Source: a virus
Lineage: Duplodnaviria > Caudoviricetes
DNA: 28,365 nt
Strand: one strand, 5' to 3'
IMG/VR virus record: IMGVR_UViG_3300027856_000279
Location: 1-28,365 of that record
In this document: positions 18,627 to 26,578 of the stretch, piece after piece
Numbering within the stretch: position 1 is the stretch's first letter
Layout: each line of letters starts with the position of its first letter
Made by a program: the position numbers and the translations under genes
The notes under the pieces: model-generated
What the model was told of the DNA's origin: nothing
Database searches by the model: none
What the model saw: only the letters and a program-made list of their open reading frames with translations

Positions 18627-18659
18627 TCGCGCTATCTCCATGGATAGTTGGCATTTATT

Positions 18660-18667
18660 ATTTGTTC
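18660..18667 (-). promoter_or_regulatory. Candidate late-promoter motif GAACAAAT
   Basis: Heads the ~9-kb minus-strand structural operon. Confidence 0.5.
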
Positions 18668-18716
18668 TTTGCTATGTAATAAATGGGATGGTCAGATTCA
18701 TTAATAAGTTGAATAA

Positions 18717-18728
18717 CTATATATATTA
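18717..18728 (+). promoter_or_regulatory. Candidate promoter motif CTATATATATTA
   Basis: Identical to the minus-strand copy at 3086-3097. Faces the accessory gene block. Confidence 0.5.
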
Positions 18729-18769
18729 ATTTTAAAGTGATATGGTTGTAGTTTTTAAAGAATATAAGT

Positions 18770-18874
18770 TTCCCGGCTCTTTGAGATTGGCCCTATCTCA
18801 AAAACAAATGAGGAATGTGCTGTAGACGGTACGAACCTCAATTAACCTCCTAATCAAGAGCCGGGAATTTTTTT
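18770..18874 (+). ncRNA. Candidate structured small RNA / leader
   Basis: Perfect 12-bp outer stem (18770-18781 with 18856-18867), two internal hairpins, then a U-tract. Confidence 0.45.
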
Positions 18875-18910
18875 AGAATTTTGGAACAAAAAACTGAATA
18901 GGAGAACTAA

Positions 18911-19129
18911 ATGAATGATATTAATAATGTTAACGAGGATATTTTTCCAGATGTTCCACACAAGGCAGTTGAGAAATTATGCGAAATACTAATTAGTAAA
19001 AATCTAAAAGATACGGAGGAATTAAGAGTTGTAGCGAAAAAACAGATTATTACAAGTGTTATGTTTCTCGAGGAATTGGGGGCCAAGGTAAGATGGAAAA
19101 CCAAGGAGGGAGGAGAATCGACACACTAG
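18911..19129 (+). CDS. Hypothetical protein
   Basis: 72 aa, SD AGGAGA. Confidence 0.65.
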   Translation: MNDINNVNEDIFPDVPHKAVEKLCEILISKNLKDTEELRVVAKKQIITSVMFLEELGAKVRWKTKEGGESTH

Positions 19130-19345: not shown

Positions 19346-20347
19346 ATGGTTGCACGAATAGCCGGAACGAAGAAAATTGTTGAGACGGGTCGATATGTAA
19401 TTATTTTTAATGTAGCAAATGGCAAAGAGATCATCTTTGGAAAACATGGTTTTCCTGATCCTTTCATGCTGGACTATCCGAATCTAATTGACATTGGGAT
19501 TATGGGTCATTGTCCAAACAAGTGTAAGTTTTGCTATCAAGGTGGGGAAGAGCAACCAAACATGAAACTTGAAGACTTCAAGAGAATAATAGATGAATCT
19601 AAAGTCTTCACAAATCAAGTTGCTTTAGGTGGAAGGGGGGACCCAAACCTGCATGAAAACTTTGGAGAGATTGTTGGGCATGCTCGGGAGTGTGTCGTCG
19701 TCCCCAACTACACGACGTCAGGTTTAGGTCTGACAAGCGAACACATCGAGATATCAAAGATGTGTGGGGCTGTCGCAGTATCAGATTACGGTCAGGATTT
19801 CACATTTGGCGCTTTACAAAGACTCATGGATTCTGATATAAAGACAAATCTACACTTCCTTTTGTCTAAAGAATCTCTAAGTAAAGCAGTAAATATCCTC
19901 AAAGGTGAGGATGTTTGGGATAGAAAGATTGATCTAGACAGATTAAATGCTGTCATTTTCCTATTGTTTAAACCTCAAGGAAGGGGTAAAAAACTAATAG
20001 ACTGGGCATTGACAAATGAAGATTTGAAAGAGTTCATTAGTCTGAGATTGGAAAATAACACAAACTTCAAGATTGGTATGGACTCTTGCCTAGTCAATCG
20101 AATTACACAAACCACAACTCTAACTAAGATGGAGGAGATGTTTCTTGATACTTGTGAGGCCGCTCGTATGTCATGTTACATAAGTCCAGACATGATGTTG
20201 ATGCCATGCTCATTTGCGGACAAGGATAAGTATGGAATATACCTTAAAGATATGTCAATTGAGGAGGCATGGAAATTAAGTCATTCATTTATGGAAACTA
20301 GACAAATGTTAGAGGAGAACAAAGAAAGGTGTCCATACGGTTTTTGA
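19346..20347 (+). CDS. Radical SAM enzyme with C-terminal SPASM/twitch-like domain
   Basis: CxxxCxxC 'CPNKCKFC', 'ALGGRGDP', 'NYTTSG'. C-terminal 'CEAARMSCYISPDMMLMPCSF...CP'. Confidence 0.92.
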   Translation: MVARIAGTKKIVETGRYVIIFNVANGKEIIFGKHGFPDPFMLDYPNLIDIGIMGHCPNKCKFCYQGGEEQPNMKLEDFKRIIDESKVFTNQVALGGRGDPNLHENFGEIVGHARECVVVPNYTTSGLGLTSEHIEISKMCGAVAVSDYGQDFTFGALQRLMDSDIKTNLHFLLSKESLSKAVNILKGEDVWDRKIDLDRLNAVIFLLFKPQGRGKKLIDWALTNEDLKEFISLRLENNTNFKIGMDSCLVNRITQTTTLTKMEEMFLDTCEAARMSCYISPDMMLMPCSFADKDKYGIYLKDMSIEEAWKLSHSFMETRQMLEENKERCPYGF

Positions 20348-20359
20348 GAGGAGTCAAGC

Positions 20360-20746
20360 ATGAAACCGGAGATAAAACACGAAAAAATTGACGACGAAGT
20401 TATTTGTCTAACGACTAATGAAATGGCAATTTGTGAACTTTCAGTGATTGGCATGGAGAAACACAAAGAGTTTTTGTTGGGACATAAAATAGAGTGTCCA
20501 TATCCCCTATTCTTCTTTCACAGAATAAAATCAAGAGTAGAAAGTAAGGGTCATGGAACAATCTTAATGAAACGCTTGATCGAGATTTGTGATGAAAGGG
20601 GTATTGCAATTATTAACCCAATAAACCCCTACGGAAGAATGAATTTAGAGGAGTTGAAAGTGTGGTTTGGGAAATACGGATTTTTTGAAGTAACAGATCA
20701 CGTAGTTGTCAGATTTCCGGAGGAGCGAAGTGAAAATAAAAGCTGA
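20360..20746 (+). CDS. GNAT-family acetyltransferase (putative)
   Basis: Motif A-like 'ESKGHGTILMKRLIEICDERG' and motif B-like 'LKVWFGKYGF'. Confidence 0.7.
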   Translation: MKPEIKHEKIDDEVICLTTNEMAICELSVIGMEKHKEFLLGHKIECPYPLFFFHRIKSRVESKGHGTILMKRLIEICDERGIAIINPINPYGRMNLEELKVWFGKYGFFEVTDHVVVRFPEERSENKS

Positions 20747-21146
20747 CTTTGTAACCAACAGTTCTTCTGCCTGCTATGTTGTTATGTTCCCACCAGAATT
20801 TAATATACAAGACCATCTGTCAATGCTGGAAAAGGGAGGAATTTTTAATAGATTCGAGCATTACACAATAGGTCAAGACCTTGAGTTAGATGTAGAAAAA
20901 ATAACACATTTCTTTGAAGTACTTCTTCAGAAGGGATGTATAATTGAACACTTGTGGGAAGAGGGTCGAATTTATATGTGGGTTGTGTTAGATATTTGTA
21001 CAGACCTTAAGTTTACAGTAGCAGAGTATGATATACCCCACGAAGGTAACAATATTGTAGTAAATATCGGAATGTCTAAAGTCCTTAATAAAGTGAAGGA
21101 GATCGGAGGGCTAGTTGAAAATAAAACAAGACTTCGTGACAAATAG
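20730..21146 (+). CDS. DFVTNSSS-leader protein 1
   Basis: GTG start at 20730 after GGAGGAG. N-terminus MKIKADFVTNSSSACYVV. Confidence 0.8.
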   Translation: MKIKADFVTNSSSACYVVMFPPEFNIQDHLSMLEKGGIFNRFEHYTIGQDLELDVEKITHFFEVLLQKGCIIEHLWEEGRIYMWVVLDICTDLKFTVAEYDIPHEGNNIVVNIGMSKVLNKVKEIGGLVENKTRLRDK

Positions 21147-21516
21147 CAGTTCAACTGCTTTTATCATCAACTGGAAGAAATATTACAAAGATCCAGATAC
21201 CATATACACAAAGGAGGAGGCCCAGGCATATCTGGAGTCCTATGGTAGAGAGTGGGACAGCACAGATCACATTAGGGCAGCAATACATACCTACATAGAT
21301 GCCATTGTGCATACTAAAGATCGGGTTGTGGAAGAAGATTATCAATCACAACTGTACTCACACGTTCTTCACTATGTTAAAGAAACAAAACATAAGTGGG
21401 TGGTGTGGGTACTAAGGGATGAATCCGTCTCTGATATGGATGACAAAATGTTTCCACATAGTTACAATGATGATAGCTACTACAAGGAGTGTGGACATGA
21501 GTTCCCTCACCTATAA
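21115..21516 (+). CDS. DFVTNSSS-leader protein 2
   Basis: TTG start after GGAGG. N-terminus MKIKQDFVTNSSSTAFII. Confidence 0.8.
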   Translation: MKIKQDFVTNSSSTAFIINWKKYYKDPDTIYTKEEAQAYLESYGREWDSTDHIRAAIHTYIDAIVHTKDRVVEEDYQSQLYSHVLHYVKETKHKWVVWVLRDESVSDMDDKMFPHSYNDDSYYKECGHEFPHL

Positions 21517-21814
21517 GATACCTCTTCCGATTGAATTGATATTACCTAATGGATTTCCGTGTCCTAAGTGCCTAGTTTATGCCAACTGTTCTAGTCCATG
21601 TGATAAACTTGTAATGGGGCACGATAAACTTACTTACCTACTAGCAGATTTGAGGCTGTGTCCTGATTGTGGACAAAAAGCTGTCGGGGAAATACTATAC
21701 TTAAATTTATCAACTTGTGTCAAGTGTTTTAATTGTACTCACATATTTACGAGAGTTTGGGATGAGGAGGGCCGCAATAGCGTATGGGTAAGAGATTATG
21801 AAAATAAAAGCTGA
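21497..21814 (+). CDS. Cys-rich metal-binding protein
   Basis: ATG at 21497 after AGGAG. CxxCx5CxxxC followed by CPDC and CFNC. Confidence 0.7.
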   Translation: MSSLTYKIPLPIELILPNGFPCPKCLVYANCSSPCDKLVMGHDKLTYLLADLRLCPDCGQKAVGEILYLNLSTCVKCFNCTHIFTRVWDEEGRNSVWVRDYENKS

Positions 21815-22166
21815 TTTTGTAACCAATAGTAGCTCTGCAAATTTCTATCTCTATCTTGAGATGGAAGAGGATTTTACCCTCGATAGTTTCTTCGATCTCT
21901 TTGGGGCGTACATGGAGAATCTGATGAGGGTTTACAGTTACCGAAACGATTTTAAGCATATGAGATTCTTTCAACCTACGATTATAATGCTCAGTGACAG
22001 AAACTTCAGGTTGGAGGATTCTACTTCAATGCTCAATGACTATGATAATGTTCCATATTATATGAAGCACATAGTTATGGAACATATTAATGTTAGACCA
22101 GACATGTCAGATCTCTTTTTAATGAGACTCAAGAGTGTTAAATTTGAATCAATATCCACACAATAG
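21798..22166 (+). CDS. DFVTNSSS-leader protein 3
   Basis: ATG start. N-terminus MKIKADFVTNSSSANFYL. Confidence 0.8.
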   Translation: MKIKADFVTNSSSANFYLYLEMEEDFTLDSFFDLFGAYMENLMRVYSYRNDFKHMRFFQPTIIMLSDRNFRLEDSTSMLNDYDNVPYYMKHIVMEHINVRPDMSDLFLMRLKSVKFESISTQ

Positions 22167-22177
22167 TGGAGGAAAAG

Positions 22178-22624
22178 TTGAAAATCAAATCTGATTTTGT
22201 GACAAATAGTTCATCCGTTAATTTTATAGTTATTCTACCAAGTGATTTTAAGATTGAAAATTACCTCAGTATACGTGAACATGCTAATATCCTCGATAGT
22301 TCAGAAGTTCACATAGATGATGTTATCGAGTCATTTGATACACTTATGATGGATGGGAGTATAAGTTCAGATATGTACGATGATTGTCCACGAGCATTTG
22401 ACTACACTCTAAGAATTCTTGGTGAGTTAGATGTAATCGTGCAGAAAGTTGATACTCCTTCTGGTGCTCCATTTGTAATCGTAAACATTGAAGCACACGT
22501 TGATAAGATCAGAGAAAGACTGGCCAAATTTAGCGAAAACCAAATGGAAAGGATTTCAGATGCAGTACGACCACTGGAAGAAAATAATGGAAAAACACTT
22601 CAGTCGGTGCAATCTGGAAATTGA
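22178..22624 (+). CDS. DFVTNSSS-leader protein 4
   Basis: TTG at 22178 after GGAGG (the ORF track starts at 22166). N-terminus MKIKSDFVTNSSSVNFIV. Confidence 0.8.
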   Translation: MKIKSDFVTNSSSVNFIVILPSDFKIENYLSIREHANILDSSEVHIDDVIESFDTLMMDGSISSDMYDDCPRAFDYTLRILGELDVIVQKVDTPSGAPFVIVNIEAHVDKIRERLAKFSENQMERISDAVRPLEENNGKTLQSVQSGN

Positions 22625-23351
22625 TGTTCGCAACGATAGATCTGAGGCTGAGAATGCCTGGGGTCGAAGAATAAGAAATATCAGAGGAGGCGGTCCAGAT
22701 CCAGATTTCGCTTTTGACATTATTCGCAATCCTCGAAAGAAGATTGAAAAGTTTATACTTTTCATTGACAATCACGAGCGTATAAAGATTCTCTCGTATC
22801 GACCTGAGACTCGTCATATTGTACTTGGAGTTGAAAACGAACCGGGTGTCATTGATCGTCTCCTCTGTGGTCATGATGAGAGGGAATACTTTATTGCAAG
22901 TCTACCAAGCGATGCTCAAATAACGACCGTTGAACAAGCTATTGAATGTTTGAAGAGAGAACCTGTTAGAGAAGCAGAAAGGAGAGATGAAAAAGTTATA
23001 AGACAGGGCGAATGGTATTTTGTTCCTCAACCAGACTTTGAAGAAGAAGGTCATCATATTCATAAGAGTGAACCTTTGGTTAGGATGATTGACGGCCGAA
23101 TGGGCGGTCGACCACACATGGCTTCAGAGGTCATAAGAACAGGTTCTGAAACAGTTCAAGTTGGAACAGGTCGTTTTGATAATGATGGAAATGAAATTAT
23201 GCGTGAGATGTCTGAAGTGTCAGAACTCTACGCAAGAGGTACAGTTAGTCATCCAGATCATAAAACTGTTAAACTCCGAGGTTGGCACCTCGTTATAATG
23301 AATCGAGAATTTGAAGGACGTTGGAATGCTGGCGTAACATTCCTCGACTAA
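22560..23351 (+). CDS. Hypothetical protein with His-rich motifs
   Basis: Likely ATG at 22560 after AAGGA. Motifs LLCGHDER, RQGEWYFVP, GGRPH and SHPDH. Confidence 0.75.
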   Translation: MQYDHWKKIMEKHFSRCNLEIDVRNDRSEAENAWGRRIRNIRGGGPDPDFAFDIIRNPRKKIEKFILFIDNHERIKILSYRPETRHIVLGVENEPGVIDRLLCGHDEREYFIASLPSDAQITTVEQAIECLKREPVREAERRDEKVIRQGEWYFVPQPDFEEEGHHIHKSEPLVRMIDGRMGGRPHMASEVIRTGSETVQVGTGRFDNDGNEIMREMSEVSELYARGTVSHPDHKTVKLRGWHLVIMNREFEGRWNAGVTFLD

Positions 23352-23579
23352 CAGTTTATTCCCCAGCGACCACCCTCACCTAGGTGGTTGGTACGAAGCT
23401 CCTCTAACCTGTCTGCAATCCTGCGGGAGAAGACTTGTCTGGTCGTACCGGAAAACCTTTGCAGATCAGTCTTAAAAAGTGCATGAATGGAGGATAGCTG
23501 TGGCCGGAGGTCCACACCTTTGTGGTCAAAAACAAGGATTGTAACCTCTTTTCTTCCCCCCCATCAGAGGAGACTAGGG

Positions 23580-24725
23580 ATGAAAAAAAAGATTCCAAAT
23601 TTAGAAGGCATTAGTTATGAGGGTGTGCCACTTGATCCAACCAACCTGCCCGTAATTTCCAATGAAGTAGTAGAATCAGTGGAAGAAGATTTGCGAATTA
23701 TGGGCAAGTGCAAAAAACGTGTAAAACCTAATTACATACCAGGAACAGGAAGGAGGGGAAAACGAAGTGCAGTTAGACTTTTAAGCCGAGAGGAAGTTAA
23801 CGATTACACATTTAAGAGGAAAATACAAATGGCTGAAAAGAAAAGATCAGAAAGAACAATGAGAGCTTTGGCTTTCCTCTTTGACGAAACCTATAAGACT
23901 GGAAAATGGATAGGTACTGAAGACTTCGCTAAGCATCTAGATATTCCTAATAGTTCAACATCCGGATTATTGACTAATATCAGCAGGAAGATGCATGAGT
24001 TTATCGAGCTGAAAGTCGACGGCAAGAAGATCTTGAGACAAATGAAAGACGACTGTCCATTCAATAGTGCAAGGGAATTCGTTGAAGAGTACTATCGTCG
24101 TAGCGGTAAGAAAACCAAGAGGAGAGTTAAAGTAAGACCGAAACCAATTGAACCAAAACCAGTCGAACCAAAATCAACCAAAACAAGAGATTCAATGCCG
24201 AGAGCTTTAAGGTTCATCTATGCAAAGGGTAAAGAAGGTGATGAGGGCTGGCTTGAGTCCAAAGATGTAGCAGAGGCTCTCGGCACCACTATTCGTTCAG
24301 CATCAGGTTTAGTTTCAAGAATCGACTCTCGGATGGGTGATCTATTGATCATTGAGAGCATTGGAGTGGGAAGACAAAAGAAGTACAGACGTAGAATTAA
24401 TACAAAAGTCTTCCACCAATTCAAGACTACTGAAAAATTCGTTGAAGAGTTCTACAAACGTGGTCCGAAATTCGATAAGAAAGTAGAACCAATTGTAGAG
24501 GCACCACTTGAGGTCGAACCTGAAGTGAAAACTGATGAAGTGGATGAAATTGATGAATCTCTGAAAAAATTGGAAAAAGAGGTTAGGGAGGGTGTTGAGG
24601 AAGTAGCTAAGGGAGCGGCTGATGCACTCGCTGAAATTCTCAACGCTGTGGGCAGAAGGGTTGATCTAAACCTTAAAGTCTCAGGAGAGGTGAAGTTCAG
24701 ATTCTTACTTGGAGAAGACAAGTAA
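23580..24725 (+). CDS. Putative DNA-binding protein with two tandem winged-helix-like repeats
   Basis: ATG at 23580 after GAGGAG. Internal duplication 'RAL.F...W....D.A..L......SGL...I...M...FVEE.Y.R'. Pro/Lys linker and acidic C-terminus. Confidence 0.65.
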   Translation: MKKKIPNLEGISYEGVPLDPTNLPVISNEVVESVEEDLRIMGKCKKRVKPNYIPGTGRRGKRSAVRLLSREEVNDYTFKRKIQMAEKKRSERTMRALAFLFDETYKTGKWIGTEDFAKHLDIPNSSTSGLLTNISRKMHEFIELKVDGKKILRQMKDDCPFNSAREFVEEYYRRSGKKTKRRVKVRPKPIEPKPVEPKSTKTRDSMPRALRFIYAKGKEGDEGWLESKDVAEALGTTIRSASGLVSRIDSRMGDLLIIESIGVGRQKKYRRRINTKVFHQFKTTEKFVEEFYKRGPKFDKKVEPIVEAPLEVEPEVKTDEVDEIDESLKKLEKEVREGVEEVAKGAADALAEILNAVGRRVDLNLKVSGEVKFRFLLGEDK

Positions 24726-24745
24726 TTGAAAGGAGGAACTAAGAC

Positions 24746-25453
24746 ATGGTGAGGAAATTATCATTGATTTTACTGGCACTTGTACTGGTTCTACCAGTGG
24801 CGTGTGCGCAGAAGGCAAAGGCCCCGGAACAACCGCTTCAGGTTTACTCAACGGAAATGGAAAACCAGGGTTTCACGAACGCTCTGGTTGAGGTTGAGGA
24901 AAAACTGAAAGAGTGTGAGGAGAATGGTCTGGCGAATTGTCCCGACACCTACAACGAGGCACAGAAGTTGAAGGGTGATGCTTACAACGCATGGACGGAA
25001 TGTCGCAGTGCAGAGGCGTTTGATATGCTTAAGCAAGCTCTCGCCAAAGCGGAAGAGGCATGCAATTGTACAAAAGCTGTTGAAGCGGCAGCACCTGTTG
25101 TGCTCAGTTGGGATCACGCTCTGTTTGACTTTGACAAGTCCAATATCAGACCGGATGCAGCAGAGGTTTTGGATAAAATAGCTGAGGACATGGTACTCCA
25201 TCCCGAAACCAAAGTTGTCATTCTTGGTAATACTGACTCGATTGGTACAGACGAGTATAACGACAGTCTCTCAAAGAGGCGTGCCGATTCGGCCGTAAGG
25301 TATCTCATTGAGAAGGGTGTAAATGATTCCCAGATTCACTCAATCAAGGCTCAGGGAAAACTCTTTCCCGTTGTGCCCAATAGAGTGGATGGAAGAGACA
25401 ACCCCTTCAATCGACAGAAAAATCGTCGAGTTGAAATAATTGTGTACGAGTAA
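24746..25453 (+). CDS. OmpA/Pal-family peptidoglycan-binding lipoprotein
   Basis: Signal peptide with lipobox (..LPVA-C). 'FDFDKSNI', 'GNTDSIGTDEYNDSLSKRRA' and 'NRRVEI'. Confidence 0.92.
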   Translation: MVRKLSLILLALVLVLPVACAQKAKAPEQPLQVYSTEMENQGFTNALVEVEEKLKECEENGLANCPDTYNEAQKLKGDAYNAWTECRSAEAFDMLKQALAKAEEACNCTKAVEAAAPVVLSWDHALFDFDKSNIRPDAAEVLDKIAEDMVLHPETKVVILGNTDSIGTDEYNDSLSKRRADSAVRYLIEKGVNDSQIHSIKAQGKLFPVVPNRVDGRDNPFNRQKNRRVEIIVYE

Positions 25454-25477
25454 AGACTACCAGGAGGTAGTTGACAG

Positions 25478-25565
25478 TGTGCCCGGAGTTGATTTGACCA
25501 GTCAGACCCCAACCTCTAAAAGAGGACGGAAAACTGGTTATTTCGCTTCGGGCACAATTTTTTTT
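25478..25565 (+). terminator. Long rod-like hairpin with U-tract (terminator or small RNA)
   Basis: TGTGCCCGGAG/CTTCGGGCACA 11-bp stem, inner TGACCAGT/ACTGGTTA and CCTCT/AGAGG stems, followed by a T-run. Confidence 0.5.
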
Positions 25566-25583
25566 CTAAAGGGAGGTGATGTA

Positions 25584-25979
25584 GTGACTCTTAAAAAATA
25601 CTGGTGGGACGAAATAGATCATCTAGATGTAGCAAAATCCTTTGTAAAAAATACGCCATTATACCTACTTAGCATCAGTGTACTTTTTCTTTATCCAATA
25701 GCATTCAACGGTCGATATGCATACTTTATGATTTGGTTTTTCTATTTTGCAACAGCAATTACAGTATTTCGACCACCTTACGAATCAACACACGTTAATC
25801 TTACAATCACAACAGTTACTTTGATTTCAATGTTAGCAGTTATTTCTGCGATGTTTGGTGATGTAATGGCTAATGTTGCTGCCCTCTGGATCTGTCTTAG
25901 GTTTAGAAAGGCACTGGTGTTTCTCATGGACTTGGGGGTAATGGAAATAAATGAAAGTGAAAGCAGATTTCGTGACTAA
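25584..25979 (+). CDS. Multi-pass membrane protein
   Basis: GTG at 25584 after GGGAGGTGA. Three to four hydrophobic segments. Confidence 0.7.
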   Translation: MTLKKYWWDEIDHLDVAKSFVKNTPLYLLSISVLFLYPIAFNGRYAYFMIWFFYFATAITVFRPPYESTHVNLTITTVTLISMLAVISAMFGDVMANVAALWICLRFRKALVFLMDLGVMEINESESRFRD

Positions 25980-26283
25980 TAGTTCATCGACGTCTTACAT
26001 TATTGATGTTCGCGTTGATATTTTGACCGCAGATGAATTTGTGAAACACTTATGGATGGGTGACTTATATGTCCAGATGATTAGTTACGACTTTAGATAC
26101 TCACAGCAACAGATAATTGATTCTCTGAATAGAAGTTATGGATTCCCTCTCGGTAAGGGAAGTCACAATCTCATTTTTGGAGATGAAAACTATGATGCTG
26201 CAGGTGAAGTTTTTGATTACTGTCTTAGAAAGGGGCACGACGGTCCTAAATTTCACATCTGGTTCCATGAATCCTTGAGGTAA
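25951..26283 (+). CDS. DFVTNSSS-leader protein 5
   Basis: N-terminus MKVKADFVTNSSSTSYII. Confidence 0.8.
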   Translation: MKVKADFVTNSSSTSYIIDVRVDILTADEFVKHLWMGDLYVQMISYDFRYSQQQIIDSLNRSYGFPLGKGSHNLIFGDENYDAAGEVFDYCLRKGHDGPKFHIWFHESLR

Positions 26284-26287
26284 AATT

Positions 26288-26578
26288 ATGGAATACAAAC
26301 ACGGAATTGTATGTCCTGCGTGCGGTAAGGGAAAGTTGATAATAACTTTTGATCTTTTAGAATTTAGTTATAGGGGTCATGATCAAATTTTTGAAGGATT
26401 TGACTCGTTTAAATGTGATCTCTGTCCTGAGTCCTTCTTGAATAAAAGACATAGTTCGGAGCTTGAGATAATACTTAAAGTACTCAGAGAGGTGATTGAT
26501 AAAAAATCAGAGGATGATCCAAAAGTTACATGGACCTTTACAAGGATGGAGGCGGACGAAAATGTCAAACCTAACTGA
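26288..26578 (+). CDS. YgiT-type (MqsA N-terminal-like) zinc finger protein
   Basis: 'CPACGKGKL......FSYRG....F......KCDLCPESF'. No C-terminal HTH. Confidence 0.7.
   Translation: MEYKHGIVCPACGKGKLIITFDLLEFSYRGHDQIFEGFDSFKCDLCPESFLNKRHSSELEIILKVLREVIDKKSEDDPKVTWTFTRMEADENVKPN

Follow-up and report, generated by a model that had tools for sequence, protein, structure and literature searches.

A short N-terminal tag on diverse small phage proteins is linked to, and co-varies with, a radical SAM enzyme

The virus record IMGVR_UViG_3300027856_000279, analysed here over its full 28,365 bases (the window), encodes a radical S-adenosylmethionine (SAM) enzyme together with five small proteins that share a short N-terminal peptide, here called the tag. 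The pairing of this enzyme with tagged genes is real and widespread, being present in cultured phages (Pseudotevenvirus, Arash, Ma-LMM01, phiYS40 and Vibrio D479) as well as in Lak megaphages. We propose, with a probability of about 0.6, that enzyme and tag co-evolve and that the former modifies the Asn-Ser-Ser-Ser core of the latter on several small, otherwise different proteins.

Conservation of the tag and its linkage to the enzyme

In agreement with a preliminary description of this DNA, five plus-strand open reading frames, starting at 20730, 21115, 21798, 22178 and 25951 (proteins 1 to 5), open with the motif M-K-[IV]-K-x-D-F-V-T-N-S-S-S-x-x-[FY]-h-h. This strict motif, with five copies in the window, did not occur in any of 300 codon shuffles, in which a loose six-residue form occurred three times. 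The tag coding regions make up a repeat family (D1) of five copies, each 67-78% to the reference, and the codons at invariant tag residues differ in 52 of 100 pairwise comparisons, with the serines encoded by both AGY and TCN codons. Because the codons diverge and the serines switch between AGY and TCN, selection on the tag is at the level of the peptide. We also considered the tag as a DNA repeat or recombination cassette, which the codon divergence rules out. A tblastn search with a 24-residue query returned the query itself as its sole match.

Beyond the tag, most of the five proteins had been described as diverging completely. Proteins 1 and 4, however, are homologous along their lengths (31% over 113 amino acids, aa), which leaves four body families among the five proteins. 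Within the tag, N10 and S12 are shared by all 133 relatives of protein 5 that were compared, F7 is found in all five window tags and in 124 of these 133 relatives, and N-S-S-S is kept in each of 105 tag-enzyme fusions, the clade of which has an additional invariant histidine (NSSSxH).

The anticipated genomic association of tagged genes with this radical SAM clade holds strongly, as seen in locus counts, fusions and control phages. When 117 enzyme loci were reduced to 70 clusters at 90% identity, 53 of the 70 had a tagged gene at most 6 kb away, rising to 36 of 41 clusters at 70% identity, and all 212 tag hits around enzymes lie on the enzyme's strand. Searching from the tag instead, the enzyme clade was found in the flanks (up to 10 kb) of 43 of 73 viral loci, and elsewhere on three of the five long contigs (28-74% complete) whose tag loci had no enzyme in their flanks. 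Among individual phages, Vibrio D479 has five tagged genes, Lak-B7 has four adjoining the enzyme, phi5 has two lying about 20 kb from it, and phiYS40 has a single divergent tag immediately upstream of it; the tag model used for these searches included one D479 tag, the Arash tag and the Ma-LMM01 tag. The controls T4, RB49, phiKZ, KVP40 and G yielded neither tags nor a full-length enzyme, and a weak partial enzyme match was seen in KVP40 only. In four bacterial assemblies (1.4-2.8 Mb), 9 of 10 tag hits fell at the enzyme locus. Every other neighbour family of the enzyme is confined to at most 3 of 10 clades.

The two partners can also be joined in one polypeptide. Salmonella phage Arash gp146c is a tagged domain fused to the enzyme, and PF04055 was detected in 105 of 108 long (261-833 aa) relatives of the Arash-type tagged domain, identifying these as tag-enzyme fusions. 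With the Arash protein as query, no IMG/VR locus was recovered. Fusions of this kind were also noted on Deferribacter and Methylobacterium megaplasmids (L212:3341-4888 and L213:3557-4882).

We then compared tag positions 4, 6 and 9 across 249 tagged proteins from 66 body families at 83 loci (83 of 123 candidate loci, requiring a full-length enzyme and keeping one representative per 90% cluster; four pattern matches had been removed by a start filter before body-family clustering). Tag spelling tracks enzyme clade, not carrier. The dialect K-D-T is used by 115 of 131 tags under the window's enzyme clade, R-D-T by 71 of 73 under a second clade and R-G-S by all 26 under a third. The three positions are identical in 4% of 773 pairs that share a body family under different enzyme clades, as against 83% of 9590 pairs with different bodies under the same clade and 94% of 422 pairs with different bodies at the same locus. 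Paralogues therefore change their tags in concert, which is what reading of the tag by a single trans-acting partner would produce, and the enzyme is the sole gene common to these loci. As far as sequence co-variation can indicate, this pattern supports recognition of the tag by the enzyme.

The enzyme, its carriers and the proposed chemistry

The radical SAM gene at 19346-20347, recognised in the preliminary description by its CPNKCKFC motif, is confirmed by matches to PF04055 (31.2 bits, cut-off 29.5) and phrog_7293 (E 3e-30). Its CxxxCxxC motif (C56, C60 and C63) is invariant, as are four C-terminal cysteines (C248, C270, C288 and C329) in 118 homologues; 3588 homologues were counted overall. 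SPASM domains carry seven or eight cysteines and two auxiliary clusters, whereas twitch domains are shortened, SPASM-like and hold one auxiliary cluster. The earlier SPASM label does not fit, as there are only four invariant C-terminal cysteines and the window protein does not match PF13186, which is matched by some homologues; by its cysteine pattern the enzyme is twitch-like rather than SPASM. The four cysteines align with the C-terminal regions of SkfB and BtrN, where their binding of a cluster is putative, and they are largely gone from the fusion clade and lacking in the Ma-LMM01 type. Ahead of the barrel lies an N-terminal extension of about 45 residues, and the enzyme has no PqqD/RiPP recognition element (RRE) match (RiPPs being ribosomally synthesised and post-translationally modified peptides). 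No named NCBIfam family was matched at cut-off. A prokaryotic viperin was considered and rejected, since the pVip profile covers residues 51-137 only (24 bits) and NF038283 scored 17.8 against a cut-off of 180.

The nearest solved sequences are SkfB (6efn) and SuiB (5v1q), and the best structural matches of a model of a fused homologue (predicted local distance difference test, pLDDT, 88) are SkfB, GDGT-MAS, SuiB and CteB. That the closest structures are cross-linking maturases speaks for a RiPP-like cross-link within the tag, such as a cyclophane-like ring joining F7 to T9 or N10, or a serine-serine ether, and the tag's F-x-T/S has the same aromatic-X-X spacing as three-residue cyclophanes. 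However, 24 of 105 fusions have L, H, R or P at the aromatic tag position, T9 is variable, the tag has no cysteine for thioethers and the enzyme has no RRE. These objections leave some room for a serine-serine or Asn-based link, but overall we regard a cross-link as quite improbable.

The carriers are folded proteins with a median length of 135 aa; a single locus can have as many as 11 tagged genes, and dozens of unrelated bodies occur. In an AlphaFold model of protein 5 (pLDDT 90), residues 1-10 are unstructured, residues 13-25 form strand 1 and the domain follows the order beta-alpha-alpha-beta-alpha-beta; the fusion model drops below pLDDT 50 only in its TNSSSSH loop. It had been suggested that the tag might be just the first strand of a known domain. 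Its last part and the residues that follow are indeed predicted to form a first strand, but the preceding residues are modelled as unstructured, the invariant part of the tag lies ahead of the fold and no known fold was matched. Foldseek searches of protein 5 against the PDB and BFVD gave no match with E below 0.001, a lack of match that does not itself make the fold new; a VIA search gave at best Z 4.0 (root-mean-square deviation 4.7, 83 residues aligned), a PDB sequence search with the carrier profile came back empty, and the ESM Atlas returned only unnamed viral clusters. The window's carriers matched nothing in Pfam, NCBIfam or PADLOC, and among 79 tagged representatives the only Pfam matches above cut-off were one leucine-rich repeat (LRR) fusion and the Arash fusion.

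Relatives of protein 5 (901 at 50% clustering) conserve FGD76-78, DY89-90, R93 and the C-terminal R110 well, and these residues would cluster near the serines if the three predicted strands are antiparallel. The motif FGD[EN]DG...D[YH] and a fixed residue at the C-terminus recur in several body families, and some families are distantly related (profile probabilities of 77% and 52%). These similarities, together with a carrier fold that begins directly after the serines, could point to autoprocessing, in which an N-to-O acyl shift at Asn-Ser or Ser-Ser would generate a pyruvoyl group or an N-terminal nucleophile (Ntn) within one divergent fold, the enzyme being a mere companion in the lineage. 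Most body families, however, do not align or show any detectable relation, and Ntn-hydrolase, pyruvoyl-enzyme and intein folds were all missing from the matches listed, which is a weak test. Since autoprocessing also leaves both the fusion and the enzyme-tracking tag spelling unexplained, we consider it very improbable.

If the enzyme instead modifies the tag, residues 1-9 (K/R-x-D/G-F-x-T/S) would serve as a specificity handle bound by the enzyme, while N10-S13, predicted to be unstructured just ahead of carrier strand 1, would enter the active site. There, a 5'-deoxyadenosyl radical would abstract a hydrogen from a serine, preferably at C-beta of S11 or S12, and the serine would be converted to an aldehyde (formylglycine), with the four-cysteine auxiliary cluster accepting the electrons and the leader possibly being lost afterwards. 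We favour oxidation at a serine C-beta on two grounds: the window's clade has an auxiliary site of four cysteines, similar to that of alcohol-oxidising twitch enzymes, and the tag contains neither a cysteine nor an obligatory aromatic residue. That the chemistry is serine oxidation specifically is nonetheless doubtful. The altered residue would adjoin the conserved carrier residues and thereby arm small acidic proteins as effectors, for which host takeover or counter-defence is the likely purpose, to judge from gene context.

Several observations weigh against modification of the tag by this enzyme. Tags were collected with a pattern in which NSS was obligatory, making its invariance in that set circular; independent of the pattern are only the invariance of N10 and S12 in the 133 relatives and that of N-S-S-S in the 105 fusions, and both of these sets were found with profiles that include the tag. 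No tag lies within 6 kb in 17 of the 70 enzyme clusters, no enzyme lies in the flanks of 30 of the 73 tag loci (many on short contigs), two of the five long contigs have none at all, and a 41-kb enzyme fragment that was searched contained no tag. Enzyme clade is confounded with phage lineage in the co-variation analysis, the pairs of which are non-independent. Because the fusion clade and the Ma-LMM01 type are without auxiliary cysteines, cluster-dependent oxidation cannot be universal; in such clades the chemistry may be redox-neutral (cleavage or epimerisation) or clade-specific. Right behind one enzyme (L011:3235) we also noted a 15-codon remnant tag out of a normal start, a decayed carrier gene. 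Finally, the fused tagged domain has further invariant residues (GW, K51, Y54, DH and GGNDN), which suit an enzyme subunit no less than a substrate.

This last point leads to the possibility that the tag is only a docking strand, and that tagged proteins are interchangeable adaptors or subunits, comparable to a split N-terminal domain, through which the enzyme would be brought to another substrate, be it a small molecule, a nucleic acid or a host protein. More than 100 fusions retain the tagged domain with invariant residues of its own, co-variation of the tag requires only binding, tagged domains in gut Clostridia are fused also to LRRs, and the possibly related Avap2 protein of a bacterial defence operon binds its partner KpAvs2 by co-immunoprecipitation (accessible text of PMC11564622). 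A reacting site accounts better than a binding strand for the presence of as many as 11 tagged genes at one locus, for the dozens of unrelated bodies and for the invariance of a polar N-S-S-S that is modelled as an unstructured loop, and the nearest solved enzymes are peptide modifiers. Docking alone therefore seems to us an unlikely, if serious, explanation.

The LRR proteins just mentioned are of the BspA type and come from gut Clostridia and Eggerthellaceae, in which the tagged domain is fused to them or lies next to them near the enzyme (L034:7001-9646; also L036, L038, L039 and L042). At enzyme loci of these bacteria, WYL and BRCT genes lie close by, and at L038 a run of proteasome-subunit-like paralogues lies upstream.

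The window and its operon

The window contains terminase, baseplate and other virion genes. Because enzymes 82% identical to its own sit on contigs of 224-277 kb, the window is, on the evidence of these relatives, a fragment of a jumbo-phage genome. The 224-kb relative has the same five tagged genes in the same order, with bodies 60-86% identical and no additional tags.

All genes of the operon lie on the plus strand, and they overlap or are 11-12 bp apart, with two untagged genes in between. The enzyme (333 aa; 19346..20347) is followed by an untagged passenger of 128 aa (20360..20746), which matches phrog_14082 (unknown function), is found only in the window's close relatives and carries what we take to be a GNAT-like motif. 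It overlaps the gene for protein 1 (138 aa, GTG start; 20730..21146), whose tag coding region (residues 1-18; 20730..20783) is delimited by the D1 repeat family and the codon table. Protein 2 (133 aa, TTG start; 21115..21516) has a body family seen only among close relatives. The untagged Cys-rich passenger after it (21419..21814) is likewise restricted to close relatives, has a weak CPxCG_zf match below cut-off and probably starts later, at 21491-21536. Next come protein 3 (122 aa, ATG start; 21798..22166), with a body family of about 20 members, and protein 4 (148 aa, TTG start; 22178..22624), the paralogue of protein 1. These four tagged genes start 383-1831 bp downstream of the radical SAM stop codon, and the fifth, encoding protein 5 (110 aa, ATG start; 25951..26283), starts 5604 bp downstream. 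The isoelectric points of all five tagged proteins are acidic (4.5-5.6). Promoter and terminator scans did no better than chance in the window.

Other features were noted around these genes. At the head of the operon is an AT-rich divergent intergenic region (18641-18911), with an inverted repeat spotted by eye at about 18770-18870. A gene overlapping that of protein 4 (22587-23351) encodes a protein with RQGEW, RPH and HPDH motifs and no family match above cut-off, and is followed by a GC-richer, hairpin-like region (23351-23487). Then come a basic, internally duplicated protein of 412 aa (23487-24725; repeat spacing of about 340-360 nt) with a weak helix-turn-helix match, a possible regulator, and a phage-encoded OmpA-family protein with a lipoprotein-like signal (24746-25453; PF00691, E 1e-19), which is retained in close relatives. 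Immediately 3' of the gene for protein 5 lies one for a zinc-ribbon protein resembling the MqsA antitoxin (26288-26578), just below the Pfam cut-off.

Relation to known systems and to Avs2 defence

Radical SAM enzymes that alter a Ser or Cys motif near the N-terminus of folded proteins are exemplified by the anaerobic sulfatase-maturating enzymes (anSME/AtsB); anSMEs act on the motif C/S-x-P/A-x-R, have two auxiliary clusters and serve one substrate family. Like them, the fusion model matches the fold of 4k39 (E 5e-6), but here the motif is N-S-S-S, the auxiliary cysteines number four or none, and the carriers comprise dozens of unrelated proteins. The C/S-x-P/A-x-R motif is absent and none of the 79 tagged representatives matched a sulfatase, which places the pair outside the anSME systems; we take the position of the anSME catalytic Asp, after the PC motif, to be that of the invariant Ser289 in this enzyme. 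Among RiPP maturases, SkfB (twitch), SuiB and CteB are the best sequence and fold matches of the enzyme. Unlike RiPP systems, however, the pair has no RRE, folded partners in place of a short precursor, a tag without Cys, conserved neighbours that include no protease or transporter, and a putative site at the extreme N-terminus, right before the folded domain.

A parallel in layout is that of CrpA and CrpB, which are described in the accessible portion of PMC13692751 as having a common N-terminal leader followed by divergent protein regions, and in which the enzyme CrpC modifies proteins. The pair studied here would work like anSME or CrpC, its radical SAM enzyme targeting folded proteins via an N-terminal motif, but falls outside both by the features that define them (for CrpC, as far as the accessible text of PMC13692751 goes). 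The same families and pairing recur as phrog_7293 (enzyme) and phrog_7397 (tagged protein), and in Arash gp146c, Ma-LMM01 gp128/gp130 and phiYS40 gp161/gp162; their members are annotated as hypothetical proteins, Fe-S oxidoreductases or 'methyltransferase', with no function assigned. Literature searches on phage radical SAM modification, NSSS tags, Ma-LMM01 gp128/gp130 and DUF6375, in which subscription journals were poorly covered, found no description.

A bacterial system that resembles this arrangement belongs to Avs2 defence. In the KpAvs2 operon, a small radical SAM gene (Avap1) is coupled to a gene of about 135 aa (Avap2, DUF6375) beside the Avs2 STAND gene; Avap2, which binds KpAvs2, is needed for defence, Avap1 is required against T2, and the roles of both are unexplained in the accessible text of PMC11564622. 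In contrast to the window's system, Avap1 has one partner rather than a panel, and that same text reports neither a modification nor any chemistry of the enzyme. In place of the tag's DFVTNSSS, DUF6375 has GYGSEHSMN, and PF19902 was matched by none of the window proteins, the 133 relatives or the 79 tagged representatives. Nor was it matched in 400 sampled gammaproteobacterial genomes, but the controls there were equally silent.

In a Deinococcus plasmid operon (L211:4468-9324) that reads radical SAM - DUF6375 - Avs2, the alignment of the enzyme with the present family takes in the diagnostic N-terminal hairpin and spans 140-185 columns (E 1e-10 and 4e-21), against 73 and 160 columns for a control enzyme (E 5e-6 and 2e-16). 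Residues 1-21 of its DUF6375 protein align without gaps to the tag, keeping positions 9 and 12 but not N10 or S11. The homology of DUF6375 and the tag is not significant by profile comparison (E 0.13), and against a tag-only profile the match lies within the range of shuffles. Should the two prove homologous, the reacting residue would most plausibly be S12. Avap1/Avap2 is likely a sister system, not a member.

Profile searches of the window revealed no adjacent Avs2 STAND gene. Elsewhere, a locus with the order SMEK-STAND (Avs2-like), small gene, tagged gene and enzyme (L156:6983-11435) was found, the enzyme of which has seven plasmid matches in Rhodobacter, Rhizobium and Agrobacterium. The two plasmid records that were opened, from Rhodobacter and Agrobacterium (L208:2596-7032 and L209:2607-7062), share its gene order, and the Avs2-like proteins at all three loci (883-888 aa) are shorter than typical Avs2. 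We consider these alphaproteobacterial combinations of an Avs2-like gene, a tag and an enzyme to be a candidate defence operon parallel to KpAvs2-Avap1-Avap2.

A wider reading, which we hold only tentatively, is that of a portable modification tag of about 13 residues with orthogonal dialects, each with its own enzyme (K-D-T, R-D-T, R-G-S, FATNSSSxH, FETNSSSxH and perhaps the Avap2 form), which would place a reactive group derived from serine where the folded domain begins. Large phages would thereby arm panels of as many as 11 small effectors, and bacteria would have recruited this chemistry for Avs2 accessories. The enzyme-tag pair offers a testable answer to the role of Avap1 and Avap2 in KpAvs2 defence. 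If such tags are natural orthogonal partners of their enzymes, they could be used for site-specific protein labelling. If the tag is modified, phages would encode a radical protein modification that reaches many folds via one short handle; on the wider reading, the same chemistry would also stand on both sides of the phage-host conflict, in phage effectors and in Avs2 accessories.

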